From contig OY970061.1 in the NCBI GenBank assembly GCA_963705255.1, positions 1 through 64,000 on the forward strand: 64,000 nt of DNA, in the 5' to 3' direction. Below the pieces are notes generated by a model. That model had not been told where the DNA came from and made no database searches. It saw nothing but the letters and a program-made list of their open reading frames with translations. Origin of the DNA: an uncultured Methanoregulaceae archaeon (GTDB lineage Archaea > Halobacteriota > Methanomicrobia > Methanomicrobiales > Methanospirillaceae). Shown piece by piece: positions 16,255-48,707 of the stretch; within the stretch, counting starts at the first letter, position 1; every line of letters begins with the position of its first letter. A program made the translations under genes and the position numbers.

Positions 16255-16530
16255 TTTGATGGGGGTTCCGACCCCATACCCCTTGTGATAGGTGCCGCCG
16301 CTTCGAAGAACCTGATGGTTCTTCTTGAATCAGTCCTCTCAGATGCGACGACAGATTCCCCACCGGGCGCCCCCGCGGCGACCTCAATTACCGGAAATCC
16401 TAGAGACGGAACTTGCCCCGACGTGCAGCGAAGAACTCTGACGAGTTCTTCTCGAATTCGTGGTTCAGACGAACCACTCATTCCTCGGAGAGGCCCTGAG
16501 GCGGGGAGCCCTCCACATTCTGGTTTTTAT
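16255..16530 (-). mobile_element. MITE-like repeat, family B copy 2, carrying hairpin modules
   Basis: Reverse-complement homology to 6190-6400 plus extra GAAGAAC..GTTCTTC hairpins at 16305-16324 and 16430-16451; boundaries approximate. Confidence 0.6.
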
Positions 16531-16650
16531 GTTCTTTCCACCCGTGAAACTCCCATTCATTCCTGCTCCCCCGGCATTCCAGATTACTCACTATATATAC
16601 CGGAAAAACCCATTTTATACGGATGATCCAACCGGACCGGAGATGAATTA

Positions 16651-18486
16651 ATGCGACTTCTTCTCATTCATTCAGATTACATAGAATACGAAGCAAAAAA
16701 GAAGACAAAAATGGCTGAGGAGTGTTCTGTCCCGACGGACAGGATGGAAGATGCACTCACCGTTTTCTGCGCCGTGGAATCGATAGATGAGGAAGATCTC
16801 GAAGGCGTGATCCTTCAGGCCGCCGGGGAAATTATTAAGACTGCCGGTCAGGTCAGAACGGATAAGATTCTGTTGTACCCATACGCCCACCTGTCAAGCG
16901 ACCTTGCTTCACCCGAAACCGCAATCAAGGTTCTTAACGATCTTCAGATGGGACTGGTGGAAGACGGATTCACGGTCAAGCGCGCCCCGTTCGGGTGGTA
17001 CAAGTCTTTCAAGCTTTCCTGTAAAGGCCACCCGCTCTCTGAACTTTCCAAGACTATCGTGCCCGGCGAGGAAGGGGCGGCGAAGAAAGAGAAAAAGGAA
17101 GTTACCCACAACTGGTTCGTCCTGACCCCGGACGGAAAACAGCACGATTACAAGGAGTATCTTGACGATTCCCCGTTCGGCTGCCTGGTGAAAAAGGAGC
17201 TGGGTATTGCCGTCCCGGTTGGCGGAGAACCGGCCCATGTCGGGCTGATGCGCAGCAAGGAACTCGTGGATTACGAACCTGCCAGCGATGTGGGATGCCT
17301 CCGCTGGATGCCAAAGGGCAAGCTGATCCGTGACCTGCTCGCCGATTATGTGCTCCGCATGGTGCTCGAGTATGGCGGCACGCCGGTCGAGACCCCGGTC
17401 ATGTACGACCTTGGCGACAGGGCAATCTTCGAGCATGCCGAAAAGTTTGGCGAGCGCCAGTACCGGTTCAAGTCCAACAACCGGAACATGATGCTGCGGT
17501 TCGCCGCCTGCTTCGGCATGTTCTCTATCATGCGGGACATGCACATATCTCCCAATAACCTCCCGATGAAGATGTACGAGCTCTCCACCTACTCGTTCCG
17601 GCACGAACAGAAGGGGGAGGTCATCGGGCTCAAGCGCCTGCGTGCATTCACGATGCCCGATATGCACTCGCTCTGTACCGACATGCCCGAGGCACTGAAG
17701 TGCTTTGAGGAGCAGCTCGCCATGGGTTGGCAGACCGGCCGGGACTTCGAGACCGAACTTGTAGCTGCGTTCCGGTGCACAAAAGACTTTTATGCCCAGC
17801 ATGAAGCGTGGGTCAAGAAGATCGCGAAGGAGTCCGGCTGCCCGATGCTCATCGAGATCCTCTCTGACAGGGTTCATTACTGGGTGGCGAAGATCGACCT
17901 CGCGGCCATTGACGGCCAGCTCCGCCCGATCGAGAACCCGACTGTCCAAATCGATGTCGAGAGTTCGACCCGGTTCAACATCAAGTACCACAAGGAGGAT
18001 GGCACACCGGTCCACCCGCCGATTCTCCACTGCTCGCCAACGGGCAGTGTCGAGCGTGTCATCTGTGCCATTCTCGAGAACATCTCTACCCGGCAGGTCC
18101 CTGCCCTCCCGACATGGCTTTCTCCCGTTCAGGTCCGGGTCGTACCGGTTGCCGAGCGCCACCTGCCGTATGCCGAAGAGGTCTGCAATGCGATCAACGC
18201 AGCCCAGATCCGCTGCGATGTCGATGACCGCGAAGAGAGCGTGGGCAAGAAAGTCCGCGAGGCAGGTATGGACTGGGTTCCCTACGTTATCGTTGTCGGG
18301 GACGAGGAAGTTGCCAGCAAAAAACTGACCGTAACCATCCGGAAAAAATCACAGCCCAATAAACCGTTCAGGGACCAGATGACTGTCGAGACCCTCGTGA
18401 CCTCGGTCAAGGTGGACACGGACGGCAAGCCATTCCGCCCGCTCTACACGCCCCGGAAGCTCTCGATGAAGGCCCGGTATATCTGA
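16651..18486 (+). CDS. thrS: Threonine--tRNA ligase (archaeal type)
   Basis: [10 protein letters not shown] archaeal editing domain, [17 protein letters not shown] and [10 protein letters not shown]. Confidence 0.97.
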
Positions 18487-18505
18487 ACTTTTTTTTACTT
18501 TTTTT

Positions 18506-18760
18506 GGCTCTATTGAAATTCTCAAAGAAACAAACAGTCGCTCTTGGGGGCTTCAGCACTTTATGCTTCCGCCCCCGCCGCTCGGGCATCCCCCATGATG
18601 CGATAGTCACTCAGAAGGTTGGAGAGAAATTCTCGATAAACGGGGGTCAAGGGGATGCTCCCCTTGGGATGCCTCCCCCTCTGGGGGAGAGAGGGGGTCA
18701 CTCTCCTAACCGCAGCAGAGTATAAACAAATGATCAGAAAAATAGGGTTTCAACAAAGTC
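18506..18760 (+). mobile_element. MITE, family A copy 1 (255 bp, minimal form)
   Basis: Imperfect TIRs GGCTCTATTGAAAT / GTTTCAACAAAGTC; T7 tract on both flanks; collinear with 43549-43928 and 48067-48700. Confidence 0.75.
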
Positions 18761-18896
18761 TTTTTTTGGAAGATTTTGATGGATCCCTAATACGGTCCGG
18801 AACGGGGGGACCGGGCCTGTAACCGGAGGCAAGAATCGTCATTTCATAGTGACAACACGCAAAACAACTGTCCACGATAGGTACCGGCGACCCTGT

Positions 18897-19934
18897 TCAG
18901 TCATTCTTCACATTATTATTTTTGGCCCGGTATCCTTCCTTTGGCACCAGCATATCGAACCGCGCCCCTTTCCCGTGTTTGCCGGTCTCTTTGATGCTGA
19001 TCCCGGTCAGGGTCAGGATCTCGCGGATTAAGAACAGACCAAGACCGGTATTTTTTCCCCGGCCTTTGATAAAAATCTCTTCTTTCTCCTTTGCGGTTAT
19101 ACCTATGCCGTCATCCTCATACGTGATCACAAGACCATCTGCCTGCTCCTCACAGGAGTAATGGATTGCCGAGATGGGCCTGCCGTGCCGGAACGAATTA
19201 TCCATAAGGTTGTAGAAGACCTTGACCAGCAGGGGGTCAGCAAAGACCTCCCTGCCATAACACCCCTTGCAGACGGGGGTAACAACATCCGGGGGGAGCA
19301 TAGACACGGCATGCCGGATCGTGGCTTCCAGATCCTGCCAGACGGGTTTCTGGATACCGAGGTTCTGGTAGTCCTCAGTAAAGTTGACCTGGTCCCGGAT
19401 TGAGGTGAGGATCAATTGCTGTTTTGCGCAATACCCAAGAATTTTTTTATCGGACGAATTTGCCTTTATGATCTCTACGTACCCTGAGAGCGCTGCCACC
19501 TTGTTGAGAAGGTCATGACGGGTGACATCGACGAAAAGATCCAGTTTTCGCCTCTCCTGGTGCTTGCGTACGGCAAACCGTATCTTATGGGAGAGTTCGA
19601 GGAACTGTTCTTCAGGGTCCGGGTGTTTTTTGAGATAATATGCGGCGCCTGCGTTGAATGCCTCGATCACAACATGTTCCGGTCCGCTGCCCGTCAGCAT
19701 GATGAACGGGGTTGGATCACCTTCTGCTTTCAGTTTTTTCAAAAGATCAAGACCGGTCATCACCGGCATATCGTAATCCGACACAACGGCATCATATTTT
19801 TTCGATGACAGGAGATCCAGCGCAGCATGAGCTGACGGGCAGATCTCAACGGAAAAGGAACCGGTCTTTTCGAGATACTCCTTTGCAGTTTCAAGGTGGT
19901 CTGTTTCGTCATCGATAAGAAGAACCGAAATCAT
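18897..19934 (-). CDS. Hybrid response regulator-histidine kinase
   Basis: REC domain (LLIDD, VSDYDMP), H-box TRHDLLN, HATPase (NLMDNS, EDDGIGI, GLGL). Confidence 0.9.
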   Translation of the reverse strand: MISVLLIDDETDHLETAKEYLEKTGSFSVEICPSAHAALDLLSSKKYDAVVSDYDMPVMTGLDLLKKLKAEGDPTPFIMLTGSGPEHVVIEAFNAGAAYYLKKHPDPEEQFLELSHKIRFAVRKHQERRKLDLFVDVTRHDLLNKVAALSGYVEIIKANSSDKKILGYCAKQQLILTSIRDQVNFTEDYQNLGIQKPVWQDLEATIRHAVSMLPPDVVTPVCKGCYGREVFADPLLVKVFYNLMDNSFRHGRPISAIHYSCEEQADGLVITYEDDGIGITAKEKEEIFIKGRGKNTGLGLFLIREILTLTGISIKETGKHGKGARFDMLVPKEGYRAKNNNVKND

Positions 19935-20133
19935 GAGTCTATCACGGGGCCTTGAAAACCTTCAGGCATTCGAACAATACCAATAATTTCATTTATCTAT
20001 ATTTAATTATTGCGTTATTGTAAAAACTTCAATTTTCAGGTTTTACTTAAAATTTTCCATTTGAAATTGGAATTTCGAACCTGGCAAGGGTTGTAAGCCG
20101 CGTCATATAATTTTGTACGCGGGTTGCCGGATG

Positions 20134-20499
20134 TTATGTCAGATAGAGCTCGATGCCCGCCCTGAGCTCAGAAAATGAGATGGGCTTGGTGAGTACACCC
20201 AGTTTTGGATCGCGGACTGTTTTCATCTTCTCTTCGATGTCAGGTGAAGCAGAGAAGATGATGACGGGAATGTCCCTCATGGCATAATCCCCGCGAAGCT
20301 TTTCAAGGAACTCCCAGCCATCGATGGGTTCCATCATGATGTCCAGCAGGATGAGTGACGGCGGATCCTTCCTGGTGGCATCGAGGGCATCGGGCCCGTT
20401 GGCGATCAGGACCGGTTCATAACCGAGTTTCCGGATGAGAATGTCCATGAGCTCGAGAATCGGCGGGTCATCTTCCACAATAAGAATTTTACGTGTCAC
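20134..20499 (-). CDS. Single-domain response regulator
   Basis: ILIVEDD, LLDIMM, TKP. Confidence 0.9.
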   Translation of the reverse strand: MTRKILIVEDDPPILELMDILIRKLGYEPVLIANGPDALDATRKDPPSLILLDIMMEPIDGWEFLEKLRGDYAMRDIPVIIFSASPDIEEKMKTVRDPKLGVLTKPISFSELRAGIELYLT

Positions 20500-22288
20500 T
20501 GGAATACCCTGATTTTTTTTGCTTGGGAAGGTGGATGGTAAACGTCCTCCCGAGGTTCACAATCGAATCAACACTGATAAACCCCCCGTGCATCTGGATA
20601 TATTTTTTTGCGATCGAGAGCGAGAGACCGATACGGTCGTATTTCCGGCTCACATTAGTCGAGTCCGGGAGCTGGAACGGCTCAAAGATCTCGTCAAGCT
20701 GCGTGTCGGTGATACCGATTCCGTTGTCCCGGATGGAGAGACGGTGCATGGTTTCATGGGGTGCCGACTGGTACGCTATCCGGATTTTGCGGGGGGGTTT
20801 GGAATAGTTGACCGCGTTTGAGAGCATCGAATCGATCACAACGGATATCTTGTTCTCGTCGGCATCGAAGGTCAGATCTGCCGGTACGTCAATAGTCAGG
20901 TCTGCTTTCGTCAGGTATCCCCCGGCATCGATAATGGTTTTGATCATCTCAGGTACCGGGAAGACGGAATATTTCAAGGGGATCTTACCGGAATCCAGCA
21001 CTGAAAGTTCCAGCATCTGGTTGATGATCTGGCGCTCCCTGTCCACGTTCTTGGCACACCTGTCGAGGATGGTCCGGGTCTCATCCGTGACCCCGTAGGT
21101 CTTAGGGTCCTGTGTCAGGAGAGAGAGATAGCCCATGATCGGCTGCAGTGGCGTCCGGAGCTCGTGTGCCACCGTGCTGAGGATCCCCCGGCGGCGCTCG
21201 TTGTCCTGCTGGATCGTTGCCTTCAGCCGCTCGTATTCCGTGATATCCACCAGGTTTATGAGGACCGCGGGGTTTCCTTTCTGCTTGATCCTGGTAAAGA
21301 AGAGCGTGGCAAGCCGTATCTCGCCGTTCTTTGTGACGAACCGTAGTTCGGTCATACCGGGAAGGGGCAGCCGGGAATCCGGCGTATCGGAAAAAAGAGG
21401 GAACCTGCTCTGGTCTTCCGGATGGAGGAACTGGAGCAGTTCTTTCCCGGTCAGTTCATCCGGCTCGTAGCCGGTGAATGCCCTGAATGTCGGGTTTGCA
21501 AATACGATCTTATTCGCCCTGAGGATGAGAATGCAGGTCGGGGCGTTCTCCGTCACCTGTTTGTACTGGAGATAATTTTCTTCAGCAGCCTGCTCGGCAA
21601 GTTTCCGCTGGTTGATATCGATGACCGAGCAGCTGACCAGGTTTCCGGTAATCCGGCTCCATGACAGGTTGACCCAGACAGGTTCCCCGTTTTTTTGTGC
21701 AAAGCGTATCTCGAAATTGGTTATATCTTCGTGGGAACCGAGATACTCAAAGAACCTGCGCTGCCCTTCCTTGTCATGGAAGAGCTCGGAAAAGCCCATG
21801 CTGGTAATCTCCTTCTCTGAATAGCCGATCAGCCGCGCAAGATTGGAATTGGCAAGCCTGATGGAGAAGGTGTTCTGGTCGAAGAGGACGATGCCCAGAA
21901 GGGATGTCTCGAAGATGCTGCGGTAGCGCGATTCGCTGCTGTTCACTTTTTCGGTAAAGTACGCCACGAGGGCAGCGACGCAGACAAAGAGAACTGCCTG
22001 CCCGGTGGTGTAGATAAGCCCCCCGGTATCCGGGAAGACATACGCGTAAGCGAGGACCTCGTACACGACTGCGCAGAAACCGGCAAGGTAAAGACCACGT
22101 CTCGGGTAGAAATAGGTAGCGTAGAGGATCGGGAAATAGAAGAGCTGGGCATAGATCGTCTCTACATGCCGGGCCAGGGAAAGCGAGGTGATGAAAATGG
22201 AGGAGATGGTGAGGGAGGTGATGACTACAAGGCGGACAATATCGGTATGTGATACCTGATACCTCCGCATTTGTACGTACCGATCCAT
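20489..22288 (-). CDS. Membrane PAS-domain sensor histidine kinase
   Basis: Four N-terminal TMs, two PAS domains, AHELRTPL and HATPase. Confidence 0.9.
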   Translation of the reverse strand: MDRYVQMRRYQVSHTDIVRLVVITSLTISSIFITSLSLARHVETIYAQLFYFPILYATYFYPRRGLYLAGFCAVVYEVLAYAYVFPDTGGLIYTTGQAVLFVCVAALVAYFTEKVNSSESRYRSIFETSLLGIVLFDQNTFSIRLANSNLARLIGYSEKEITSMGFSELFHDKEGQRRFFEYLGSHEDITNFEIRFAQKNGEPVWVNLSWSRITGNLVSCSVIDINQRKLAEQAAEENYLQYKQVTENAPTCILILRANKIVFANPTFRAFTGYEPDELTGKELLQFLHPEDQSRFPLFSDTPDSRLPLPGMTELRFVTKNGEIRLATLFFTRIKQKGNPAVLINLVDITEYERLKATIQQDNERRRGILSTVAHELRTPLQPIMGYLSLLTQDPKTYGVTDETRTILDRCAKNVDRERQIINQMLELSVLDSGKIPLKYSVFPVPEMIKTIIDAGGYLTKADLTIDVPADLTFDADENKISVVIDSMLSNAVNYSKPPRKIRIAYQSAPHETMHRLSIRDNGIGITDTQLDEIFEPFQLPDSTNVSRKYDRIGLSLSIAKKYIQMHGGFISVDSIVNLGRTFTIHLPKQKKSGYSSDT

Positions 22289-22435
22289 GGCTATAGTCGT
22301 AGTTCAGTGTATGAGTTTATAAATCTAGTATTTCCGGTTCCCGCACAAGGGAATGGATCCTGTCTTGACCGGGTTACGAACCCGGATTGAGGTTTTCGGA
22401 CCCAGCCGGTTTACCGGAACACCCGGCAGGCAGGT

Positions 22436-23776: not shown

Positions 23777-23960
23777 GGGTAGAAATGGGATGTTGTGGGA
23801 TATAGTGGTTGGGGGGGGTGACAGGAGTTCATGAGTTTTGTAGCATATCCCCCGCAGAGATTTATCGAGTTAGAAATTTCATAAAAATGTTAGTCACTCA
23901 CTTGTTATAGCGCCATTCTGAAAAATGGGGTTCTGAGTTCATGCTTGCGATTAATTTTTA

Positions 23961-24776
23961 TTATAAGACTTTATTGAGATCTATCTCAAATCCTGCTGCT
24001 TTAAGCTCTTTTGCTAATTTAAATTTCCAAGCTTCTTTTTTATCATAAGGTGTATACAAGATTCCATCGTAATTAGAGGGTAAATCTTCAACATCTTTAT
24101 TAATAACGCACAAATGTGAACCATTCAATTTTCCGTAAAAATAGCCCAATTCTAAAATTACATTCTGTCGAGCTCGACTTTTTAATTTGATATCATCAAT
24201 TTTCTTACCTTCATCATCAGGGGAAAGCAATACAATCGCAAAATTTACATTACTATAATCTTTTAATTTTTGGGAAATTGATCTATTTTGATCTGGCTTT
24301 TCATGTAAAATAACAGCTTCCAAGCCTAATTTTTCAACAAATCTTGCAACACTTTCTTTTAACCCTTCATCATGACCGTGTACGATAAATATTTTATTGC
24401 TACTTTCATTCGACGATAGAATTTCTGATATCTGTAACAAATTATTTGATTGATCCGTTTTCAAATCGGAAACATTATTTAAATTACTTATTGTTCCCTC
24501 TTCAATTTCTTTTTGAATTCGAATAAGTATTTGAATACAATCTTTTACATGAATTTTTTTAGGTTCTTCTTTATCTGTCGTGCTTTTGATCTGATTGAAT
24601 AATTTGGTATATTCGTTTAAGGTTGGGAAAATTTCATTGAATAATATGACGATTTCAGCCCTCCAAACATTAAAATTAGATTGATTAACATACGAAGATT
24701 TCGTTCTATTCAAATTGTATCCTTCATCGATTAATCTTACAAATTTTTCTATTAGCAATTTTTTTGTGTATGGCAT
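23961..24776 (-). CDS. TIR-domain (CAP12/Pycsar-effector-type) protein
   Basis: KIFIVHGHD, FAIVLLSPDD, RARQNVILELGYF and LPSNYDG; AT-rich. Confidence 0.85.
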   Translation of the reverse strand: MPYTKKLLIEKFVRLIDEGYNLNRTKSSYVNQSNFNVWRAEIVILFNEIFPTLNEYTKLFNQIKSTTDKEEPKKIHVKDCIQILIRIQKEIEEGTISNLNNVSDLKTDQSNNLLQISEILSSNESSNKIFIVHGHDEGLKESVARFVEKLGLEAVILHEKPDQNRSISQKLKDYSNVNFAIVLLSPDDEGKKIDDIKLKSRARQNVILELGYFYGKLNGSHLCVINKDVEDLPSNYDGILYTPYDKKEAWKFKLAKELKAAGFEIDLNKVL

Positions 24777-24854
24777 CGCATTTTCTATTGAAAAAATGGG
24801 ATGATAATATTATTTGAATCTTATTCAAAATTTTTGTATAATTTTTTTTCAAAA

Positions 24855-25200
24855 ATTTGCGATAGCTCCGCCGCCCTCCGCGGGGCGCCCCCGGCGGCGG
24901 ATCAAAACCCGGAACTTTTTTTCTTGAAGGTAATACAGCACTATCCCTTAACGCAGGATGTTCAGGAGGTGAAGCGCACGCGGCCGAAGGTCATGTCTGA
25001 TGCACGAAGAACCATCGGGTTCTTCGCTGAAGCACGGTTCCCCTCGTCCACGTTCCCCTTTGCACATCAACACCTGAAAATCTCCGACGGAGAAAGCACC
25101 TTCTCCGGCGTGAACCCGGAGCCGGAAACAGGGGTTCCTATCGTAATCGCTCCCAATACCTTGATCGCAAACCCGATCCTCAAATGAAAAGGGTCCTATT
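24855..25200 (-). mobile_element. Degenerate MITE-like repeat, family B copy 3
   Basis: TTTGCGATAGCTCCGCCGCC and GGCGCCCCCGGCGGCGGATCAA match the reverse complement of 6284-6370; GAAGAACCATCGGGTTCTTC hairpin at 25006-25025; boundaries uncertain. Confidence 0.45.
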
Positions 25201-25510
25201 AGCGCAGTTTTACCTTTCCGGCGTAAAATTGAATAAACCGGGGCAGAATTATCCGATTAAAAATCATTTCCGCAGGTGTTTCGTGCGAATTCCGCAGTTT
25301 TTCGGGTACCCAAAATTTTTGCCTTCCGGAAAAATCGTTCATTCCTGCCCCTGTTCGGCAAAATACGGCTGATTTCGATAATGGACGGGATGTGTGGGGT
25401 CTCATCTCCTACAGGGTGTTTGACGCATATGTTTTCCGTCGGAGACCTTGTATATGCACTTCCTATAGGCAGGACCACCGCCAGTATTTATCCTACATCT
25501 CAATAAATAT

Positions 25511-25562
25511 CTTACCAGTAAGCCAATACCTTTATTTTCTTACAAAACAATGAATTTCTTAC
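25511..25562 (+). promoter_or_regulatory. Putative operator of the AbrB-PIN module
   Basis: Inverted repeat CTTAC-CA-GTAAG at 25511-25522 plus TTTCTTAC direct repeats at 25536 and 25555. Confidence 0.45.
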
Positions 25563-25563
25563 C

Positions 25564-25806
25564 ATGGAAATTGTTACCCTGTCCTCAAAAGGCCAGATCG
25601 TCATTCCCTCAAGAGTCCGGAAAAGATTTTCCTTAAAAGAAGGTGACTCGCTAATGATTGTGGAGGAGAAAGACGGCATCCGGCTCCAGCCGCTGGTCAA
25701 CCTTTCAGAGCTCTGGGGTGTCGACAAGCTGAAGAATACGGAAACGATGCTCAAAGAGATGCGGAAGGAGTGGGATGATGAGCTCGAAGACAAGGCAGCT
25801 CTTTGA
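25564..25806 (+). CDS. AbrB/MazE-family antitoxin
   Basis: VTLSSKGQIVIPSRVRKRFSLKEGD. Confidence 0.9.
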   Translation: MEIVTLSSKGQIVIPSRVRKRFSLKEGDSLMIVEEKDGIRLQPLVNLSELWGVDKLKNTETMLKEMRKEWDDELEDKAAL

Positions 25807-26179: not shown

Positions 26180-26288
26180 TTTTTCTGGATATAATCCAAA
26201 ATTATTGAAAAAATCACCCAACAATTACACCACTATATCTCCCCGCCATGCAGTGCTGGATCAGCCCGGATATTTTTCTTCAAAACAA

Positions 26289-26666
26289 TTAGTACGAGAT
26301 CAGCTCGAGCCCCTCAATCGCTGAAAAATGCCGGTCCCGCGTCACAAGCGGTTCATCATGGCGGAGAGCAATTGCCGCTATCAGCTCGTCAAAGGTCGAG
26401 ATGTGCCGGCCACTTCCGGAAAGGACTGATGCAATATCAGCATAGATGACCGCAGATTCCGCATCGAATGGAAGAACCGGGAAAAAATGCAGGAATTTTT
26501 CCGAGACGTCATACACGTTCTTTTTACCGCTCTTCTTCGCACCATAGAGGAATTCAGCATTGCTGATTGACGTTGTCCTGAGAGTTTTGTGGAGTTTTAT
26601 TACCTCTTCGGTATCCGGATCTCCTTTCATGAGATCGATGAGGAAACAGGTATCCGCGATAGTCAA
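26289..26666 (-). CDS. vapC: VapC-type PIN toxin
   Basis: IADTCFLIDL, AEFL, FDELIAAIA and VTRDRHF. Confidence 0.9.
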   Translation of the reverse strand: MTIADTCFLIDLMKGDPDTEEVIKLHKTLRTTSISNAEFLYGAKKSGKKNVYDVSEKFLHFFPVLPFDAESAVIYADIASVLSGSGRHISTFDELIAAIALRHDEPLVTRDRHFSAIEGLELISY

Positions 26667-26896
26667 AGTGATACCTTCCGGGGTTTGACACGATCAAGCT
26701 CGGATTTTGCCGTTATCACCGATTCCGCAATCTTGTTGCGGACCGCGGGATCAATAGTCTGCAAAAAATCACAGACACTTTTTTCCTCACCACCGGTAAC
26801 CCGGAGTATCACATCGGAATAGCTCTCCCCGGCGCGTTTGTGTGCCTTGAGCGCGTGATACGCGGATTCCTTGATGTTGATGGTCTTGGTCACCAT
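26663..26896 (-). CDS. vapB: VapB-family (DUF217-like) antitoxin
   Basis: TKTINIKESAYHALKAHKRAGESYSDVILR; overlaps the toxin gene. Confidence 0.88.
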   Translation of the reverse strand: MVTKTINIKESAYHALKAHKRAGESYSDVILRVTGGEEKSVCDFLQTIDPAVRNKIAESVITAKSELDRVKPRKVSL

Positions 26897-26907
26897 GATA
26901 GATTTAT

Positions 26908-26919
26908 TGTGTATACACA
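26908..26919. promoter_or_regulatory. Perfect 12-bp palindrome, putative VapB operator
   Basis: TGTGTATACACA just upstream of the vapB start. Confidence 0.55.
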
Positions 26920-26998
26920 GTTATACTTTTTTCGACACACTTCATCTTCACGTCCCTATCCGTTGCCCATAAAGCCCATCAGCACCAACATTCCTGCG

Positions 26999-29460: not shown

Positions 29461-29522
29461 TAACCAGGGGTCTTTTAATCACGAAACAGGATCTGGTTTT
29501 CCTGACAGGAGAGACGCATACC

Positions 29523-30481: not shown

Positions 30482-30571
30482 TCAGGACTCCACATACTTA
30501 TATGCAATAAGATCATCGACTAGTACTGAAGTACATTCGGGACACAGCTGGATGAGTGCAGGGAAGATGGA

Positions 30572-34589: not shown

Positions 34590-34862
34590 TCATCAGGAAA
34601 TGGTCGTTATTTATTATAAAGAGCATCTTTTTTTAGGTGGATAAAATAACCCAGTGTTCGTTCCGGATTCTGTTGCATCTGCGGGACGTTTAAATAGTGA
34701 ATATTGATGGGTTACGACGATATCATTTCCATTAGGTCTCGTTAACGCAATAGCACCTTCATGAGAAAGAGTTAGATTGGTCAACGCGCGATTCAGATAC
34801 TTCTTATTCTTGAAGTTATACTTTAGATTGATTCAAAATTTTACGATAAAAAAGAGGTCAAA

Positions 34863-36041
34863 ATGTCAAATCAAGACATTCTCTATGAATTATGGATTAG
34901 TAAATACAAGCATTGTGATTCTATAACTCTTGGTCAAATAGAAGACTTTGCAATAGAGAACCGGCCCTCATTGAAATCATGGGATCGAAAAGTTATCCCA
35001 ACTTTCAGTGGCTTAAATTACGCAGTCTTGAAGTTTATCCTTGAATATTGTTCTCCAGTGAATTGGCCGGATGGATTATGGGACGAATTTCAGCAGGCAG
35101 CACATCCAAAAAAAAGTAAATATTTGATATGGCGAAAATACCCAACGCTTACAGTTAATATCAATAATGTAAAAAATACAAGGGTTTTGGAAAAATCATC
35201 AAGAACATCGATGATAACGTCAGATGCAACTATTCAAAAAACCGATAGTGTAGTATCTATTAAAGAGACTGACGATTTGCGCAGATTCACTGAATATATA
35301 GTAGCCAAAATTGACCTGATCGAATGCTCTGCTGGTACGGGTTGGACCGCACTTCTTTCAACATATCAATGGCCACCGGGTAAAGGGAGTTACGCTTCAG
35401 GAATTGAGATTCGGAGGCACTTCCATTTTCTTGTTAATGATGCATCTGAAGCAAAAGGGAAAGGAGCAAAGACATACCGCCAAGGAATATTCAACGCTAT
35501 TTCCGGATGGGCTGGAATTAAGGATAAATTTGGTGATGAAGATAGCAACCAAATTTTTTCAACTGTTAAATATCTAAAAAGGGTTTCAAGACAAAACGAA
35601 ATCGATATTAGCCAAATCTTTGATAGGAGAATTTCAACAACATCAAAGATTTACTACTTTAGTGATCCCTTGAACTGGACTATCTACGATTCTCGTGTAG
35701 CTTTTGCACTTTGCAACCTCGCCAATCTTTTCAAACACGATGATCTTGCAACATATTCACGTCTTGGTTCTATGATTCAGTTTCCAGTACCGAGAAACGA
35801 TCAAGAAAGAGAAAATCCTGATATTCCATGGAGTAATCGTTTAGCTGCAGCGTCGTTTGTCCGTGCGAGTTTCATTCTTCGAAACATAACAACAATTTTG
35901 AATGCGCGTCGGGTTTCACCACCTCAAATCGGGATCTTTTCATCCAATTCATGGGAATTATATCACGTGGAAATGGTGCTATTCATAATTGGGAAGGATT
36001 GTGGAATTATCACGAATAATACGACGAAAAGCGTTGAATAA
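34863..36041 (+). CDS. AT-rich hypothetical protein with a C-terminal helix-hairpin-helix/OGG-fold glycosylase-like domain
   Basis: ISGWAGI, RISTTSKIYYF, IYDSRVAFAL and VEMVLF motifs. Confidence 0.6.
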   Translation: MSNQDILYELWISKYKHCDSITLGQIEDFAIENRPSLKSWDRKVIPTFSGLNYAVLKFILEYCSPVNWPDGLWDEFQQAAHPKKSKYLIWRKYPTLTVNINNVKNTRVLEKSSRTSMITSDATIQKTDSVVSIKETDDLRRFTEYIVAKIDLIECSAGTGWTALLSTYQWPPGKGSYASGIEIRRHFHFLVNDASEAKGKGAKTYRQGIFNAISGWAGIKDKFGDEDSNQIFSTVKYLKRVSRQNEIDISQIFDRRISTTSKIYYFSDPLNWTIYDSRVAFALCNLANLFKHDDLATYSRLGSMIQFPVPRNDQERENPDIPWSNRLAAASFVRASFILRNITTILNARRVSPPQIGIFSSNSWELYHVEMVLFIIGKDCGIITNNTTKSVE

Positions 36042-36130
36042 TGTCAACAGCTAACAAGTGAGAATTTTGCTGATTAATTCACCTGATTCGAGGCTTGTAT
36101 TTATTATTAGCATACCCATATTGGTACCAG

Positions 36131-39466: not shown

Positions 39467-39730
39467 GATCCCGGTTTTTGCAACCTTCTGCTCCTACGTT
39501 GTGCCGGAGTACTGCATCCATTATCCTCCCCACCGGTTATTTTTTATCAGGCCCGGTACTGTCACCAATCCCCTGTAATTTATAAAATTCCTATACCCAA
39601 TCACTTTTTACGTTTGGAACCGGAATAGCTATCGTATTTATCAGATGTTCCGGGATTTGAAATTCACGTCAGAATAGCGCTGGTCGATGGCGGGAATGTT
39701 TTTATCGATGCAGAGAAAGGGGAGATACCG

Positions 39731-41089: not shown

Positions 41090-41141
41090 CCGGCCAACCT
41101 TGTTACCCGGCCGGTTTAAAAACCCTGCCCCGCGTTTCCGG

Positions 41142-43097
41142 TCATCGCCCTGTATGGTGCCGGGCCGCCTCGCTCATCCGCTCATTCAGTTTCCTGACCT
41201 GGTCCCGAAGGGCAATTGCCCGCTCGAAGTCAAGATTCTCCGCAGCGTCCCGCATCTGCTTTTCGAGTTCGATGACCACGTTCGGGATCTCCTTTCTTGG
41301 CACGTGCCGGGTATCCCTGATATCGACTTCTTTTTCCTTGACTGGTTTGACGATGGTCTGCGGGATGATGTTGTGCTCTCTGTTGAAGGCGACCTGCAGG
41401 TCCCGGCGGCGCTTCGTCTCGGCGATCGCGCGTTTCATCGAATCGGTCATCGTATCAGCGTACAGCACGACGTTCGCATTCACGTTCCGGGCTGCCCTGC
41501 CGATGATCTGGATCAGGCTCCGGGCATCGCGGAGAAACCCTTCCTTGTCGGCATCCAGGATACCGATAAACCCGACTTCGGGGATGTCAAGTCCCTCCCT
41601 CAACAGGTTGATCCCTACCAGCACGTCGAATTTCCCGAGACGGAGCTCGCGGATGATCTCGCTGCGCTCGAGGGTCTGGATCTCCGAGTGAAGGTAGCGG
41701 GTCCTGATCCCCTGCTCCGCAAGGAACTCAGACAGTTCCTCTGCGAGTTTCTTGGTGAGCGTGGTGATGAGGACGCGGTCTCCCCGCTCAACGGTTGCCC
41801 GGACTTCCCGTATCACGTCCCCGGTCTGACCCTCGATAGGACGTACCTCCACACCCGGGTCCACAAGACCTGTCGGGCGGATAATCTGCTCGACGAGCCT
41901 CGAGGATTTTTTCAGTTCATAGTCACCCGGGGTTGCGGACACGAAGACAACGTTTCCCATGTACTGCTCAAACTCATGGAACCTCAGGGGGCGGTTGTCG
42001 TACGCACTCGGGAGCCGGAAACCGTAATCCACGAGTGCTTTTTTCCGCGAGCGGTCGCCGTTGTACATGCCGTGCAGCTGCGGGATCATCTGGTGGCTCT
42101 CATCGATGATCATCAGGAAGTCGTCCGGGAAGTAGTCGAGCAGGCAGTAGGGTTTCTCGCCCGCTTTCCTGCCATCGAAATGCCGGGAATAGTTCTCGAT
42201 CCCCTTGCAGGAGCCGGTCTCCTCGATCATCTCGATATCGAACCGGGTCCGCTGCTCGAGCCGGTGGGCTTCGATCATGCCGAGCGTGGGAAGTACTTCG
42301 TCGAGTTCCTTCCGGATCGATTCTATCGCCGTTCTGCGGGTGCTCTCCGGGGTGACAAAGTGCCGGGCGGGGTAGACATAGAAATACTTCATCTCCTCTT
42401 TTTTTGCTCCGGTATTCTTGTCCACCTCCCGGATGCGCTCGATCTCCTCGCCGAAGAGCTCGACCCGGATGATGTCGTTGAAGTAGCCGGGTACGATGTC
42501 GATGGTGTCCCCTTTGACCCTGAACCGCCCCGGGGCCAGATCGATATCGTTCCGCTCGAACTGGATATCGAGGAGCCGGCTCAGGATCCCGCTGCGGCCA
42601 ATCTTCTGGCCGACAGCGAGTTCGAACCCCATGTTCCGGAAATTTTCCGGGTTGCCAAGGCCGTAGATGCAGGAGACCGAGGCGACCACGATCACGTCGC
42701 GGCGGTAGGAGAGCGAAGCAGTGGCGGAGAGCCGGAGCATCTCGATCTTGGGATTGATGGCAGAGTCTTTCTCGATGTACTGGTCCTTTGCCGGTATGTA
42801 GGACTCCGGCTGGTAGTAATCATAGTAGGAGACGAAGTACTCGACACGGTTGTGGGGGAAAAAGTCGCAGAACTCCTGGTAGAGCTGGGCCGCAAGCGTC
42901 TTGTTGTGGGCGAGGACGAGCGTTGGCTTGTCCGCTGCTACGATCACGTTTGCCATGGTGAACGTCTTGCCGGAGCCGGTGACACCAAGAAGAGTCTGGC
43001 ACTGCTCGCCCGAATTGAGTCCTTCGGTTAACTGCCGTATTGCTTCCGGTTGTGAACCGGCCGGTGCAAACGGGGAGGTGAGCTGGAATCCTGTCAC
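41142..43097 (-). CDS. uvrB: Excinuclease ABC subunit B
   Basis: GVTGSGKT, YYDYYQPE, DESH, GINLLREGLD and C-terminal UVR domain; GTG start inferred. Confidence 0.96.
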   Translation of the reverse strand: MTGFQLTSPFAPAGSQPEAIRQLTEGLNSGEQCQTLLGVTGSGKTFTMANVIVAADKPTLVLAHNKTLAAQLYQEFCDFFPHNRVEYFVSYYDYYQPESYIPAKDQYIEKDSAINPKIEMLRLSATASLSYRRDVIVVASVSCIYGLGNPENFRNMGFELAVGQKIGRSGILSRLLDIQFERNDIDLAPGRFRVKGDTIDIVPGYFNDIIRVELFGEEIERIREVDKNTGAKKEEMKYFYVYPARHFVTPESTRRTAIESIRKELDEVLPTLGMIEAHRLEQRTRFDIEMIEETGSCKGIENYSRHFDGRKAGEKPYCLLDYFPDDFLMIIDESHQMIPQLHGMYNGDRSRKKALVDYGFRLPSAYDNRPLRFHEFEQYMGNVVFVSATPGDYELKKSSRLVEQIIRPTGLVDPGVEVRPIEGQTGDVIREVRATVERGDRVLITTLTKKLAEELSEFLAEQGIRTRYLHSEIQTLERSEIIRELRLGKFDVLVGINLLREGLDIPEVGFIGILDADKEGFLRDARSLIQIIGRAARNVNANVVLYADTMTDSMKRAIAETKRRRDLQVAFNREHNIIPQTIVKPVKEKEVDIRDTRHVPRKEIPNVVIELEKQMRDAAENLDFERAIALRDQVRKLNERMSEAARHHTGR

Positions 43098-43295
43098 GGT
43101 TCTTAGGATCTCGGGTTTTGATATTAAAAGGGATCGGGATATGGCATGAAGGCGAAAGGGAGGGGGCTGCCAGATTGGTGACAAGGAAATGTGCCGGAAT
43201 TGCAGCGCGGGGATGCCCAATGCGCATTATACTGCAGAATATGTTCTCATCATTATGCACACACGGCATACGGCAGCACGAAAAATAAAAGAGGA

Positions 43296-43490
43296 TTATT
43301 TCTTTGAGATAAGTGTGTGTTTATCTTCATCGACTTTGTAGGATTTCGGACGGTCAAGGAGATCAAGCGCGTTGATCTTCATGTCGATAAGCTCGGAATA
43401 ATTAAACGACTCGTACTCCTTTTCGCCCTTCTCATCCCAGAAAACGACAATCCCGTTCTCCATCTTCTTGCTGCTGACAATATCGTGCAT
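43296..43490 (-). CDS. Small hypothetical protein
   Basis: 64-aa ORF with natural composition and an ATG start. Confidence 0.65.
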   Translation of the reverse strand: MHDIVSSKKMENGIVVFWDEKGEKEYESFNYSELIDMKINALDLLDRPKSYKVDEDKHTLISKK

Positions 43491-43548
43491 ACTGTCAAAT
43501 CGGGGACGTGAGCACATGAATTTTTCTGCGTCAGAAAAATATGAAAAA

Positions 43549-43928
43549 GGCTTTGTAGAGATCCTATTTTATCCTGTAATTTGATTATATTCTCCGCTGG
43601 TTATGAGGGTGACCCCCTCTCTCCCCCACTGGGGGAGGCAGCGAAAGTCTGACGACCTTCTCGATTTCGTAGTCTGATGACTACTCAATCAGCCCAAGGG
43701 GGGTATCCCCTTGAATCTCTGAGAGGTCTTCAGACCTCGAAGAGGAGAAGGGAGGCAAGAGCCGACCTTCGACCCGTCTATTATTCCTCTCCTTATCTCA
43801 GTGGTTTTTCATCAACCTTCTGAGGGGCTATCGCAATATGGGGGGCCCCGGCGGCGGGGGGGTGGAGGCATCAGATGCCGCAGCCCCCAAGAGCGTCTGC
43901 AATGAAAACCAATGATTTCTGCAGAGCC
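43549..43928 (-). mobile_element. MITE, family A copy 2 (380 bp)
   Basis: TIRs GGCTTTGTAGAGATC / GATTTCTGCAGAGCC; A tracts on both flanks; collinear with copy 1 plus two inserted hairpin blocks. Confidence 0.8.
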
Positions 43929-43951
43929 AAAAAAAGAATTTGGTTTTCCTC

Positions 43952-45244
43952 TCACATCGGTTTATAGTGACCCCATTTCTCCAGCGCTTCCCTCAGGGCT
44001 TGTGCGTTCCTGGCTTTCTCATCGAGCGGTATGCCCTCTTTCCAGGCCTCGATTGCCTGCATGGTAGCCTGTGCCCCGGCCCGTGTCCCTTTCGGGTGAC
44101 CGTGGATGCCACCGGACACGAGCAGAACCATTTCCGTCCCGTAAATATCGAGCACATCGGGCACAAGACCCGGATGCAGCCCACCGGACGAGACCGGGAA
44201 CGCAGTTTTGATCGTTCCCCAGTCCTGTTCAAGCAGCATGCCATCCACCGCCTTGATCTTCTTCTCCCGAAGGATATCCGCAAGCGCCATGGACTCCCTC
44301 CGCGAGCCGGTCAGTTTTCCTACTGCGGTCCCGGTATGGATTTGCGTGACACCTATCAGCCGCATGAGCTTTGCGAGGAACTGCATGGTTATCCCGTGCT
44401 TCCGGTTGCGGTCGAACGTGGCATGCATCGCGCGGTGCGCGTGGATCGCGAGGCCGAGATCGGAACAGTAGTCCCGCATCGTCATGACTCCTGCAGTGCC
44501 GGCAACGACGACGTCGATCATCGCGTAGTTCCAGCCGTTCTCGGCAAGCATGTCAGCCCGTTTCTTCATCGTCTCCACATCGGCGGTAATATTGAGGAAC
44601 GCAGACTTTTTCTCCCCGGTCTCTTTCTCGGCCACATCCCGCAGTTTCGTCATGTGCTTAACCCGGTCGTCGAACTGGTTGAACGAGGTGGAGGTCAGGT
44701 TTTCATCGTCTTTGACAAAATCAAAACCGCCCATCCAGGTCTCGTACCCGATCTTTGCGTGCTCCCGTGCCGAGAACCCGATCTTGGGCTTGGGCACCGC
44801 GCCGGTGAACGGCCGGTCGGTGATTCCCATCATCTTCCGGATCCCGTCGTTGCCGAAATGAGGGCCTTTGAAGTGTTTTATATAGGCAGGCGGGAGCGAG
44901 ACATCGATCAGCCTCAGGTTCTTCAGGGCTTTCATGCCAAAGATGTTCCCTGCGATCCCGCTCAGAAGCTGAACGGCATTCCCCTCTTCCCAGAGGGCCA
45001 GCGGGTATGCGATCTTTACCACGTTTCCTTCTATGTCAAACGCCGTTGCCTGCAGGGCTTTCATCCGGGGCGGCATGGTAAAGAGGGTGGTCCATGTCCC
45101 GGTCGAACTCTCGGACGCGATCCGCCCGGCTGCTTCCCTGCCGCTGATCCCTGCAGCGGGTTCAAAATAAAAGAGGCAGATGAGTTCGTTCTTTTCCGGC
45201 TCGTAATTCAGGTTGACAAATTCGTTGTACCAGTCAATTGCCAT
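43952..45244 (-). CDS. rbcL: Form III ribulose-bisphosphate carboxylase
   Basis: ESSTGTW, KPKIG, GGFDFVKDDE, HAHRAMH and SGGLH. Confidence 0.95.
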   Translation of the reverse strand: MAIDWYNEFVNLNYEPEKNELICLFYFEPAAGISGREAAGRIASESSTGTWTTLFTMPPRMKALQATAFDIEGNVVKIAYPLALWEEGNAVQLLSGIAGNIFGMKALKNLRLIDVSLPPAYIKHFKGPHFGNDGIRKMMGITDRPFTGAVPKPKIGFSAREHAKIGYETWMGGFDFVKDDENLTSTSFNQFDDRVKHMTKLRDVAEKETGEKKSAFLNITADVETMKKRADMLAENGWNYAMIDVVVAGTAGVMTMRDYCSDLGLAIHAHRAMHATFDRNRKHGITMQFLAKLMRLIGVTQIHTGTAVGKLTGSRRESMALADILREKKIKAVDGMLLEQDWGTIKTAFPVSSGGLHPGLVPDVLDIYGTEMVLLVSGGIHGHPKGTRAGAQATMQAIEAWKEGIPLDEKARNAQALREALEKWGHYKPM

Positions 45245-45636
45245 AGATATTCCTGTACCTTTAAAGGCGATTCCGGGTAAAAAAAGGTGCTCAAGAGATG
45301 TTTGCCGCAAGGCCATGGTGGAACGAACCATGTATGATCACCGGGAGACGGACGTGCAGGATACCGTTCAACCTTTCGTCCGGAAACACCACTATTTCTG
45401 AAATGGACCCACGCCCCATCCCTGTTCATTCTCGCTATCGGTGATACTGCCCTGTTCATCGATTATGTGCAATGGGCCCGGGTCATGACGGCCTCGCAGC
45501 CTTGCGCAACCGATGCCGTCGCGGTTGCCAACCGGCTGACAGCAGGATCCCGACCAGGGAAAAACCGTGCATCTCAGGATCCCGCAAGTTTATGCGGGGG
45601 ATGGCGGACCGGTTCACGATAAAAATCCCGGCGCAC

Positions 45637-46943
45637 TCATTTTCCGGATTTCCCGAAACGACCACGGAGGGATCCCGAAATCGTTGAAAAAATGCCTGTT
45701 CGGGACGAGGGGGACTCTTCCTTCCCGAACGGCTCCGGCTCTGCCATGCCTGCAGATTCTTCCGGAGGGACAGGACCTGCCGGTACATCCGGCATAGCTT
45801 CGGGCAGGATTTCAGGATCCTGAATGACTGCAAGTGCCCCGGAACTTGGTATTTTTTGGATTGATCTCCCCGCCGGGGGCTCCGGATGATCCATGATGTC
45901 ACCGGAAGGTGGCTGAACCGGAACGAATGCAGGCTCTGCCATCACCGTTACCGGAACTTCCTGTCCGGCAGAAGTTGAAGGTCGGGCGGATTCATAACCG
46001 ACCTCCGGGGGCAGTGTACCCTCCGTGTGATCGATCGGTACTCCCTCATGGCCTGACTCCACGGAAGGTACAGCAACGTCTTCCCCCCCGGTGCGAACAT
46101 GAGTTTCCGTGGCTGCCGCCATCAGGGTGATCGCTCCAGGATCGGGTGTCACGGGATCTGCAGGGCCGGTTACACCGGATACGATTTCCGGTGCCTGCAG
46201 GATGATGCCAGGAGAAGCATTGTCAGGGGCACTCTCTCCAGCGGGCAGATCTCCCGGCCCGGTTGGAGCAGCTGGAACCGGTACCATGACTGGCTCGGGA
46301 GGTACCGTTGCTATCGGACGCGGGGCATCATCCATCTCCCGGGAAAGTTCACTGGCAAGACCGCTCTGTTCGGTTATCCGGTTTCCGATCACTGCGATGG
46401 AACTCATCAGTTCGTCACGGTTCGGCGCATCGCGATGAGCGAGATCGAGCTCCTTCTGCAGGGTGTCCCTGAGGCTGGCGTCCACATCAAGCGTTGTTTT
46501 GAGCGCAAAATATTCGGAAATTTTTTCCGGTCGGATCCCTGCAGCATGGAGCGCACCGCTCTCCTCCCTCGCCGTTTTCCTTCTCGAAAGCACCTTTTCA
46601 ATAGCCGCGACGAGCTGTTTCGGGTTCACCGGTTTTGAAATGAAGTCATCGATAGTAATCCGGTGAGTTCGGCCTCTTCCGGAGTGATCTTCTTTGCAGA
46701 GAACATGAGAACCGGTATGTCCCGGGTTCTGGGGTCTGCCTTGATCCGCTCCAGTGTCTCCCAACCGTTCATGGGTTCCATCATAATATCGAGAATGATC
46801 AGGTCCGGTGTCTCCCTGCTCAGGATGTCAAGACACTGCTCTCCACCGAAAGCGGCAAGGGGGCGATAGTATTTTTTCAGGATCAGGACGAGCCCTTCGA
46901 CAATCAGCCTCGTATCGTCAACGATAAGGATGGTATCGGTCAA
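45637..46943 (-). CDS. Response regulator with coiled coil and a long Pro/Ala/Glu-rich tail; frameshift near 46665
   Basis: REC domain (ILIVDD, ILDIMM) in ORF 46626-46970 continues as IDDFISKP in ORF 45637-46764. Confidence 0.75.
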
Positions 46944-47124
46944 AGGTATCCTCCTCCTCGTCCCGGACACACATACCTCTGACGCTTTTATCAGGGAGGG
47001 ATTTTGTCAGGGACAGAGTATCTCTTCATTTATGAAAACCGGTGAAGGGTCTCTCAATTCTCCAGTATATATTAGGTAAAATGAAATTTAAATGATCTTG
47101 TAAATGAATCCGGGTTCCTGAGGT

Positions 47125-47140
47125 AAAAAACCTTTATAGA
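47125..47140 (+). promoter_or_regulatory. BRE/TATA-like archaeal promoter
   Basis: AAAAAACCTTTATAGA. Confidence 0.45.
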
Positions 47141-47413
47141 CCGGGTCAGCGAAGGGGACAGGGTTGAACACGTTCTCCAGACTTGTCAGGGAGGGTCGTC
47201 AGCCAGTCAATCTCGTCATTGCTCGACCGGTGGGGCACGGGCACTTTGGCAGGGCAGACAGAACAGAACAGTAAATCCGGATTTTTATACCCGGGTGTAC
47301 GACACAACTCCGGATGAAAGCCAAAGCCATGGACGCCCGGCAATCCCATCGGCCTTTTGCTTGAACGACCGGATACTTCATGTGATGCAAAGACCAGCTG
47401 ATATGGAATAATC

Positions 47414-48060
47414 ATGGGCGAGCGCAGACCTGAGGCCCCGGAAAAAGCCACGCGGCCGTCCTGACCGGCCCCCCGTTCTACCTCCCGGAATTCGAGGAGT
47501 CGTACCGGTACATTATCGATGAGTATGACATTGGCCCCCGGGACATTGCCATTTTTATTCCCTGTGCGGTCCGGAAACCCTACAGCCAGAGCCCGAGCCA
47601 CCAGCTGATCCGGATGATCATATCGCAGGTCCTCGAACCGTCACAATACCATATCGTCGTTTTCGGGACATGCGGGATCGTCCCTGCCGAGCTTGAGGAG
47701 ATGTACCCGTATGCCCATTACAGGTACATGCTCGGGAAATGCCAGGACGAATCGGTGAAGGAGGACTTCCTCAGGATCGAGACCGAACGGGTTGCGGGCT
47801 ATCTCGAAAAGACCCGGCATACCTATACCTACCGCATCGCGTACTGTATCGGGCTCTTCCGCGAGGCGCTGGTCCGGGGGTCAAGGAAAGCAGGGGTCGA
47901 TATCGATCTCCTCCTTCCCAGCCGGGACATGATCAACCGGATCATCGAGGAGGAGGAGTGCGCGTTCCAGGAGGGCAACCTCTCCATGGAAGATTACCTG
48001 GGGGAGTTCTGCGACGGGCTCATCCGGTTCCGGAATGATCACTATGGGATGGGGAAGTGA
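47414..48060 (+). CDS. DUF5591-like protein (related to the archaeosine synthase/TGT central domain); frameshift in an A-run near 47445
   Basis: IFIPCAVRKPYSQSPSH motif lies in frame upstream of ORF 47614, followed by GIVPAELEEMYP. Confidence 0.75.
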
Positions 48061-48066
48061 GAGGGG

Positions 48067-48700
48067 GGTCCGGCAGATCAATATTCTGACGCTCTTGGGG
48101 ATGTCGACATGACAAAGTCATGGAGACAAGAGAAGAACGCATAAGCGTTCTTCGAATTTTCTGCAACCTGGGCACAGCGAAGATGCTCTCGAATCTTCTC
48201 GAGCCTGCCATGCCTTTGGCGATGGCAGCATCCCCCGAATTGCGATAGTCACTCAGAAGGTTGGCAGGAAATTCTTGAGAGAATGAGAGGAATAATAGAC
48301 GGGTCGAAGGTCGGCTCTTGCCTCCCTTCTCCTCTCCGAGGTCTGAAGACCTCTCAGAGATTCAAGGGGATACCCCCCTTGGGCTGATTGAGTGGTCATC
48401 AGATCACGAAATCGAGAAGATGCGTTAGCATCTTCGCTGCCCCCCCCTTCGGAGGAGACTGCTCTTCCCGAAGGGAAGAACAGGCTGGAGAATGTCGAAA
48501 GTCATCAGACTTGAGACAGGAGAAGACCGTAGGTCTTCGATCGAACTCGTCAGAGTTCTTCGATCTCCGAAGAGGTTCAACAGGACCTCGAGGATAAGAA
48601 GAACTCATCAGAGTTCTTCGATGTGAGAGAGAGGGGGTCACCCTCATGACATCTTCAAATGGTTTACAAAAAATGAACCGTGGAAGATTTCCACAGAGCA
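48067..48700 (+). mobile_element. MITE, family A copy 3 (about 635 bp, hairpin-expanded)
   Basis: Skeleton blocks CGCTCTTGGGG, GCGATAGTCACTCAGAAGGTTGG, TCAAGGGGAT..CCCTTGGG and GAGAGAGGGGGTCAC; right TIR GATTTCCACAGAGC; left end degenerate. Confidence 0.75.
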
Positions 48701-48707
48701 GAAACCC

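Follow-up and report, generated by a model that had tools for sequence, protein, structure and literature searches.

Miniature elements derived from IS200/IS605, known as palindrome-associated transposable elements (PATEs), have been described in archaea, and the pneumococcal BOX and Neisseria Correia elements are modular repeats of bacteria. Repetitive extragenic palindromes (REPs), together with the bacterial interspersed mosaic elements (BIMEs) and the REP doublets (REPINs) moved by REP-associated tyrosine transposases (RAYTs), are treated as a bacterial feature. In the description of Di Nocera (2013, PMC3733652), REP palindromes carry a conserved GTAG or CGTC tetranucleotide at one end; where Quentin et al. 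[quoted passage not shown] The present study concerns the GAAGA..TCTTC hairpins of an uncultured Methanoregulaceae archaeon (assembly GCA_963705255.1, hereafter G000), found in a window formed by the first 64 kb of its single 2,600,650-bp contig (OY970061.1, hereafter C1). An earlier note had taken them for a free-standing module of 14-22 nt that colonises MITEs of two families and might be an archaeal counterpart of the REPs. The short free-standing module was not borne out: the GAAGA..TCTTC hairpin forms part of a strand-polar, non-coding unit of ~50-60 nt, in which it comes second (H2), after a first hairpin (H1), and it is this two-hairpin module that comes and goes. The proposal of a REP-like family is supported, the abundance of the hairpins being far above chance, and we assign the units to an archaeal REP/BIME-like repeat family. 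No published description of these repeats was found in the literature on Methanoregula or Methanomicrobiales repeats, on MITEs or on archaeal REPs.

The likeness to REPs, BIMEs and REPINs lies in palindromes that are short and imperfect, the base of the stem being invariant and its top variable, in the hundreds of intergenic copies, in the patchy presence among relatives and in the non-canonical features specific to one strand, to which mosaic clusters and convergent doublets at 14-25-nt spacing may be added. All 11 hairpin coordinates previously listed for the window contain hairpins when read directly, nine of them with perfect stems of 5-9 bp, and the 21/22 identity claimed for 48598-48619 and the reverse complement of 16430-16451 is confirmed, its sole mismatch lying in the loop. 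That inventory missed the asymmetric GA..GA flanks and the upstream partner hairpins, and overlooked further copies such as 48179-48198 (imperfect), 48102-48128, 48386-48413 and 16454-16483. The pattern GAAGA-N(5-14)-TCTTC has 12 matches in the window for 1.30 expected (12 or more in 0 of 100 shuffles), eight of which fall in the named elements; the remaining four (5703, 8226, 55197 and 57807) lie elsewhere and are 5-6-bp hairpins or non-hairpins, the sequence 57807-57822 forming, away from repeat elements, a perfect hairpin of 6 bp (GAAGAG/CTCTTC, loop TTTG). Searched genome-wide, the pattern gives 326 matches, including 206 whose stem is perfect over 7 bp or more, and GAAGA-bearing stems represent 186 of the 744 perfect hairpins of the genome with stems of at least 8 bp. 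The tagged form GAGAAGA..TCTTCGA is present 165 times vs once for the reversed control pattern, and perfect hairpins (stem of at least 6 bp) with GA/GA or TC/TC flanks number 302 vs 43 in a Markov simulation. REPs are high-copy, extragenic, imperfect palindromes of 20-40 nt; here the 206 perfect hairpins measure 15-24 nt and 192 of them are intergenic, an approximate figure given the crude gene calls (2001 genes, 67% coding). Neither GTAG nor CGTC was found at the H2 flanks, the tag being GA-GAAGA in this family, which also differs from REPs and BIMEs in its archaeal host, in its unit of two unlike hairpins instead of one, and in its lodging in MITE scaffolds of the terminal-inverted-repeat (TIR) type.

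H1 and H2 share a common build on the same strand, consisting of a short outer helix, a tandem G.A loop, an inner helix and an apical loop. The internal loop is formed by 2x2 tandem G.A mismatches (5'-GA/3'-AG), the apical loop is GNA, GNNA or NTCA, and the inner helix is free in sequence provided that its pairing holds. Among the 206 hairpins, 182 are flanked by A..G on one strand and 141 by the full GA..GA; in 96 of these 141 a Watson-Crick pair is found immediately outside GA..GA, and the stem therefore continues through a 2x2 tandem G.A loop. The flank consensus is W-G-G-A before the H2 stem and G-A-C-W after it. On the GA strand, 39 of 54 triloops are GNA, and the 106 tetraloops include 40 GNNA and 58 NTCA; TNC, TNNC and TGAN loops were not found on this strand, the loop orientation tracking the flanks without exception. 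A perfect H1, its loop enclosed on both sides by inner helix, GA and outer helix in succession, was identified upstream of 54 of the 191 tagged H2, for 0-1 when any of nine other dinucleotides replaced GA; shuffles gave 0.0 and random genome positions 0.03. By manual tally, the 62 listed H1 rows comprise ~36 different helix combinations around a constant GA/GA; both helices therefore covary. The orientation of the units was set without use of H1, and among 151 distinct cases the more stable H1 fold is that of the GA strand in 137 and that of the opposite strand in 11. G.T pairs in H1 follow the same polarity (33 on the GA strand vs 7 on the other, 71 vs 69 in a downstream control), as does the stability of the whole unit, with the GA strand preferred in 155 vs 8 cases with DNA parameters and in 134 vs 25 with RNA parameters. 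We conclude that the conserved entity is one strand, folded on its own.

Two sequences allow the elements of the window to be compared with orthologous sites: G041, a congeneric relative in synteny, long blocks of which are 92-97% identical, and L179, a contig from a metagenome, with 95% protein identity in its flanking gene. The units and their two host scaffolds, families A and B, are arranged as follows.

48066..48703, plus strand: loaded copy of the MITE-like family-A scaffold, filling the entire gap between open reading frames (ORFs) 47614..48060 (plus) and 48708..49457 (minus); ends matched by eye to presence/absence insertions between G000 and G041, outer limits approximate; orthologues in G041 and L179.
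48102..48153, plus strand: slot-1 unit, with H1 at 48102-48128 (outer TGTC/GACA, GA, inner CATGAC/GTCATG, GA) and H2 at 48132-48153 (perfect 9-bp stem, loop ATAA); at this position G041 and L179 carry a different H1, and L179 an identical H2.
48179..48198, minus strand: imperfect H2 of an opposite-orientation unit, in convergent doublet with the preceding unit 48102..48153; perfect versions of the doublet lie at 1027247, 2071990, 2209485 and 2244593.
48332..48359, minus strand: H1-type hairpin in slot 2 (outer helix, GA, GAGGTC/GACCTC, GA).
48386..48435, plus strand: unit with H1 at 48386-48413 (outer GATT/AATC, one internal G.T wobble) and H2 at 48416-48435 (perfect 8-bp stem, loop GTTA), absent from the orthologous MITE of G041 and L179; the flanks of the indel are a CTG/GCTG repeat.
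48459..48483, plus strand: H1 of the slot-3 unit, which includes the hairpin 48463-48479 (perfect 7-bp stem, loop GAA, arms TCTTC..GAAGA).
48493..48542, plus strand: 50-nt two-hairpin unit with H1 at ~48499-48512 (perfect 5-bp stem, loop ATCA) and H2 at 48522-48538 (perfect 7-bp stem, loop GTA), within the 5' arm (GAA^GAACTC) of the slot-3 H2.
48543..48561, plus strand: 3' remainder of the interrupted slot-3 H2 (6 bp and an unpaired 3' TTC), whose detached 5' GAA is at 48490-48492.
48567..48619, plus strand: unit with H1 at 48567-48593 (one T.G wobble) and H2 at 48598-48619 (perfect 9-bp stem, loop ATCA), present in G041 and absent in L179.
43586..43896, minus strand: second family-A copy, limits approximate, with a degenerate H2 at 43643-43660 (imperfect, 6/7 pairs), H1 at 43663-43690 and an empty slot 1.
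18530..18710, plus strand: hairpin-free ('empty') family-A copy, whose G041 orthologue holds five GAAGA hairpins in three slots.
16305..16324, minus strand: H2 in the family-B scaffold (perfect 8-bp stem, loop TGAT), kept in G041 except for one loop base.
16430..16483, minus strand: unit in the family-B scaffold, with H2 at 16430-16451 (perfect 9-bp stem, loop TGAC) and H1 at 16454-16483; in G041 this site is occupied by another hairpin (7-bp GAAGTTC stem) with another neighbour.
25006..25025, no strand assigned: solitary hairpin (perfect 8-bp stem, loop ATCG) with C..G flanks, without the GA..GA tag and with no repeated sequence beneath, in a region that does not align with G041.

The host scaffolds display TIR-like ends (by eye) and whole-element insertion polymorphism, elements of 281 and 734 nt being present in G000 only and one of 276 nt in G041 only; the units thus reach new loci aboard the MITEs that carry them. 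They are themselves unlike MITEs, the H1 side differing from the H2 side and the flanking repeats being limited to 2-4 nt of varying sequence. Among the 26 family-A cores with all anchors, nine are empty, with all three inter-anchor intervals minimal and uniform in length, 16 are loaded, with units in one to three of the intervals and all combinations represented, and one (277333) differs from the empty form only by 18 additional nt in the first interval. The idea that the hairpins entered MITEs already in place is borne out by these nine empty cores and by the orthologous MITE with no hairpin in G000 and five in G041. The hairpins are not confined to MITEs: only ~46 of them are located within the 26 anchored family-A cores, and scaffold-free arrays, for example at 2469 kb, lie between ordinary genes. 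The assembly of elements from short hairpin-forming modules, variable in number and placed between constant ends, is reminiscent of BOX and Correia elements, from which the present modules differ by forming a separate family that occupies several unrelated scaffolds (A and B here, others in families f3 and f5 of the order), extends over three families of the order and is nested in its own members' stems.

This nesting is illustrated by the slot-3 H2, split in the window and unsplit at the orthologous site of L179 and in the paralogues 2577881, 2244701 and 1027355. Genome-wide, 16 H2 stems are split by a unit inserted after GAA (from 17 search matches, 1779470 being dropped as coding-like and without a unit upstream), and further nested inserts, with 2-4-nt flanking repeats of varying sequence, lie within an H1 stem or within another unit. 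Units are gained as discrete blocks. With PATEs they share unlike ends without terminal inverted repeats and a hairpin near each end on the same strand. The insertion of PATEs beside a short fixed sequence, without obvious duplication, may have a parallel in the 16 stems split after GAA; other unit inserts have flanks other than GAA, and as the copies share ancestry any target specificity would be putative. The units differ from PATEs by their size of only ~50 nt, and no TnpA (Y1) was detected in the hairpin-rich genomes searched.

Loss and shuffling are observed along with gain. A 56-nt unit indel, bounded by a 13-nt direct repeat, distinguishes two 2.8-kb duplicates that are 99% identical; it fits loss by slippage, the simplest reading being a deletion. 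A 2.8-kb cluster of small ORFs that lack Pfam matches, adjoining a PIN-domain gene, is present twice, at G000:C1:2057880-2060727 and 2467529-2470970; the two copies are 99% identical over the first 1.6 kb, and the second has extra hairpin units and a MITE between genes. In the orthologous slot 1, G000 associates one H1 with H2(AACGC/ATAA), G041 differs both in its H2 and in its second unit, and L179 combines a G041-type H1 with the H2(AACGC/ATAA) and the downstream part of G000, which therefore places a crossover at the GGA|GAAGAAC border. Twenty-nine G000 hairpins belong to the region aligned with G041, 11 of them inside alignment blocks, and five of these 11 differ on both arms with pairing kept; no unit event was found in gaps within the megablast alignments to G041, the events falling between alignment blocks. 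Three window blocks absent from the syntenic G041 (23816-25077, 26184-26940 and 34618-36097) resemble small gene insertions, the first being AT-rich and containing ORF 23961..24776. Outside the window, six identical 49-nt tandem repeats at G000:C1:1668285-1668578 (array at 1668314), each ending in a hairpin with an AACC stem and a TTAT/ATAA loop, are a single unit amplified into a minisatellite, and a unit is also tandemly repeated with a 58-nt period at 1212414. A single long ancestor bearing all hairpins and eroded by simple deletions, the scenario that the earlier note opposed to its own, fails to account for hairpins interrupted by units and for a same slot that differs among G000, G041 and L179. 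From the patterns of gain, loss and shuffling, this scenario is therefore excluded, and recombination makes up a good share of the turnover.

The tagged hairpin reaches high copy numbers in three families of the order, but its distribution is patchy. Within the genus, 21 of 24 genomes have at most three tagged hairpins and the other three have 26-168; G041 has 161 and G137, 106, and some relatives with single-contig genomes, G020 among them, have 0-3 copies. By manual tally over 200 genomes of the order, those with 20 or more copies number 5 of 54 in f1, 6 of 12 in f3 and 15 of 51 in f5, and 0 of 83 in f2, f4 and f6. The f5 genomes G038 and G193 display the same two-hairpin tandem-G.A build with different helices, and in G102 (f3) a short H2 is located within the loop of a GC-rich hairpin. 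In an exact-pattern scan with one genome per species, the matches listed come mostly from records titled Methanoregula or Methanoregulaceae, along with scattered single bacterial matches at about the chance level (estimated at roughly 9). A set of records titled only 'bacterium' holds at least six exact tagged-hairpin matches (L048, L061, L069, L077, L098 and L114), and this bin may contain archaeal contigs. In G193, many tagged hairpins are at contig positions 5-25 or 52-90; the repeat units break assemblies, as in this short-read assembly with many copies at contig ends.

The involvement of a RAYT/IS200 Y1 transposase, or of a reverse transcriptase flanked by hairpins, which the earlier note suggested looking for, was not confirmed. 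PF01797 was not detected in any of the six hairpin-rich genomes (G000 and five others), whereas REPs are accompanied by a cognate Y1 (RAYT) gene that is typically REP-flanked; the same search recovered this domain in 6 of 14 known genomes used as control. A single reverse transcriptase gene (315961-317547) was found, with a separate gene between it and the nearest hairpin. The reverse transcriptase gene, encoding 528 aa, lies ~2 kb from a 311-aa KilA-N gene (319538-320473) with three hairpins close by, and the region G000:C1:315961-320473 may be a small mobile or defence island. In G000, IS110 (PF01548) was not found, DDE_Tnp_1 is limited to two short fragments, and no multi-copy insertion sequence (IS) occurs among the long repeats of the genome, a 1.26-kb triple repeat being an ordinary paralogous gene. 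One frame of 179 codons, situated between inverted hairpins, appears non-coding from its richness in Cys, Trp and Arg. At G000:C1:2543266-2543988, a protein of ~250-280 aa matches the Cas12f1-like TNB domain (E about 1e-23); it is shared by G000 and eight of ten relatives tested, hairpin-rich and hairpin-free alike, and its gene appears to be a short, conserved TnpB-like one, not an active IS.

Concerning the location of the units relative to genes, the 112 hairpin-bearing gaps comprise 61 co-directional (27 ++ and 34 --), 34 convergent and 17 divergent gaps, for 1019, 312 and 319 respectively among 1650 background gaps, a mild pull toward gene 3' ends. Adjacent units form 14 '+-', 9 '-+', 15 '++' and 19 '--' pairs; 10 of the 14 '+-' pairs are spaced by 14-25 nt, many of these being copies of one doublet.

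We consider it rather probable that these repeats are selfish two-hairpin units which insert into MITEs and into one another, with subsequent reshuffling by recombination. They would behave as selfish DNA of the REP/BIME kind, lodging in a few MITE slots and inside each other's stems. As every non-Watson-Crick feature is on one strand, the unit would be recognised as a folded single strand, presumably of single-stranded DNA (ssDNA); a dedicated enzyme other than a Y1/RAYT transposase might move it, for which the invariant GA-GAAGA/TCTTC-GA stem base could be the recognition site. A more specific version, that of an archaeal micro-transposon of ~50 nt with two tandem-G.A hairpins, moved as ssDNA by a non-Y1/RAYT enzyme common to several Methanomicrobiales families and inserting into stems of its own kind (after GAGAA), is a possibility that we regard as doubtful; this preferred insertion would explain the nested, self-building mosaics. 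Several observations count against such selfish units. No mover was found, PF01797 being undetected in the five hairpin-free genomes as well, and TnpB-like proteins (PF07282) cannot be linked to the hairpins since hairpin-rich and hairpin-free genomes alike give 1-3 matches, one of the three in G000 being TFB. The 16 intervals bracketed by hairpins, in which 11 ORFs were scanned, contain no transposase or nuclease, and their genes are ordinary (OCD, methyltransferase, TPR, VTT, rhodanese, KilA-N, DUF4411 and M78). The insertions show no consensus of site, neither a uniform target nor a duplication being seen among flanks such as AGA, CTG, GAA, TTC and TG, in copies that are not independent. 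A lagging-strand ssDNA mechanism might have left a replichore pattern, and none is clear in the orientation of the units, in a genome with weak GC skew; no orientation bias to neighbouring transcription exists either (53 sense vs 43 antisense), and the crudeness of the gene calls affects all intergenic figures. The same composites recur in 6-7 MITE copies, so that many apparent gains at a locus could be gene conversion between paralogues instead of fresh insertion, and the one-strand asymmetry fits RNA equally with ssDNA.

The recurrence of identical composites leads to the view that recombination alone could have built the mosaic, the hairpins being original parts of a few ancestral long MITEs later modified by slippage deletion, tandem duplication and gene conversion, with neither mobility nor enzyme of their own. 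The 56-nt indel between direct repeats, the L179 crossover exactly at the GGA|GAAGA border, the one-unit tandem arrays at 1668314 (6 x 49 nt) and 1212414, and the lack of a transposase tracking the hairpins agree with this view, but the 16 stems interrupted by a whole unit need at least one true insertion into an existing hairpin, and nine empty cores with identical interval lengths would require repeated exact deletions. The units are moreover found in unrelated scaffolds and in scaffold-free arrays, and ~36 H1 types cannot fit one element when the longest element found is ~730 nt; we judge this explanation unlikely. The one-strand asymmetry leads in turn to transcribed modules, for instance tandem-G.A protein-binding hairpins that stabilise, process or terminate transcripts and that DNA repeats merely spread. 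K-turns and K-loops are tandem sheared G.A motifs of RNA, and the units resemble K-turns in having tandem mismatches (5'-GA/3'-AG) that separate two helices and are limited to one strand, a resemblance that we treat as a lead; the internal loop is a symmetric 2x2 loop devoid of the 3-nt bulge that defines a K-turn. The location of the tandem G.A, the G.U-type wobbles (33 vs 7) and the GNA/GNNA loops all on one strand, the greater stability of this strand with RNA parameters, the strong covariation in both helices and the mild excess of convergent gaps (34/112 vs 312/1650 overall) would suit an RNA, but opposite-orientation units adjoin within one element, they are not oriented relative to neighbouring genes and they are essentially missing from most species of the genus. 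Furthermore, no Rfam 15 family matched the window at gathering score, and the region 48000-48760 gave at E<=1 one chance-level miRNA match, with 18.9 bits vs a gathering score of 95.5; a hammerhead was also discarded, core positions being missing when the flanks are read. An RNA function as the reason for the units thus appears improbable to us. That the palindromes are operators or chromatin-protein sites read as double-stranded DNA would agree with the invariant, palindromic outer 5 bp (GAAGA/TCTTC), but it is hardly credible in view of the strictly asymmetric flanks and loops, of an inner stem that varies freely with its pairing kept, of G.T pairs tolerated on one strand only, and of a copy number ranging from 0 to ~170 among close relatives.

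A REP-like family is thus present in an archaeal order, where its structural signature is sharply defined and specific to one strand and no Y1 enzyme was detected. These units alter the intergenic regions far faster than the surrounding genes evolve. Either host recombination alone builds and spreads such mosaics, or an unknown structure-specific enzyme exists, and the coexistence of hairpin-rich and hairpin-free species in one genus makes this enzyme searchable through the comparison of their gene content.

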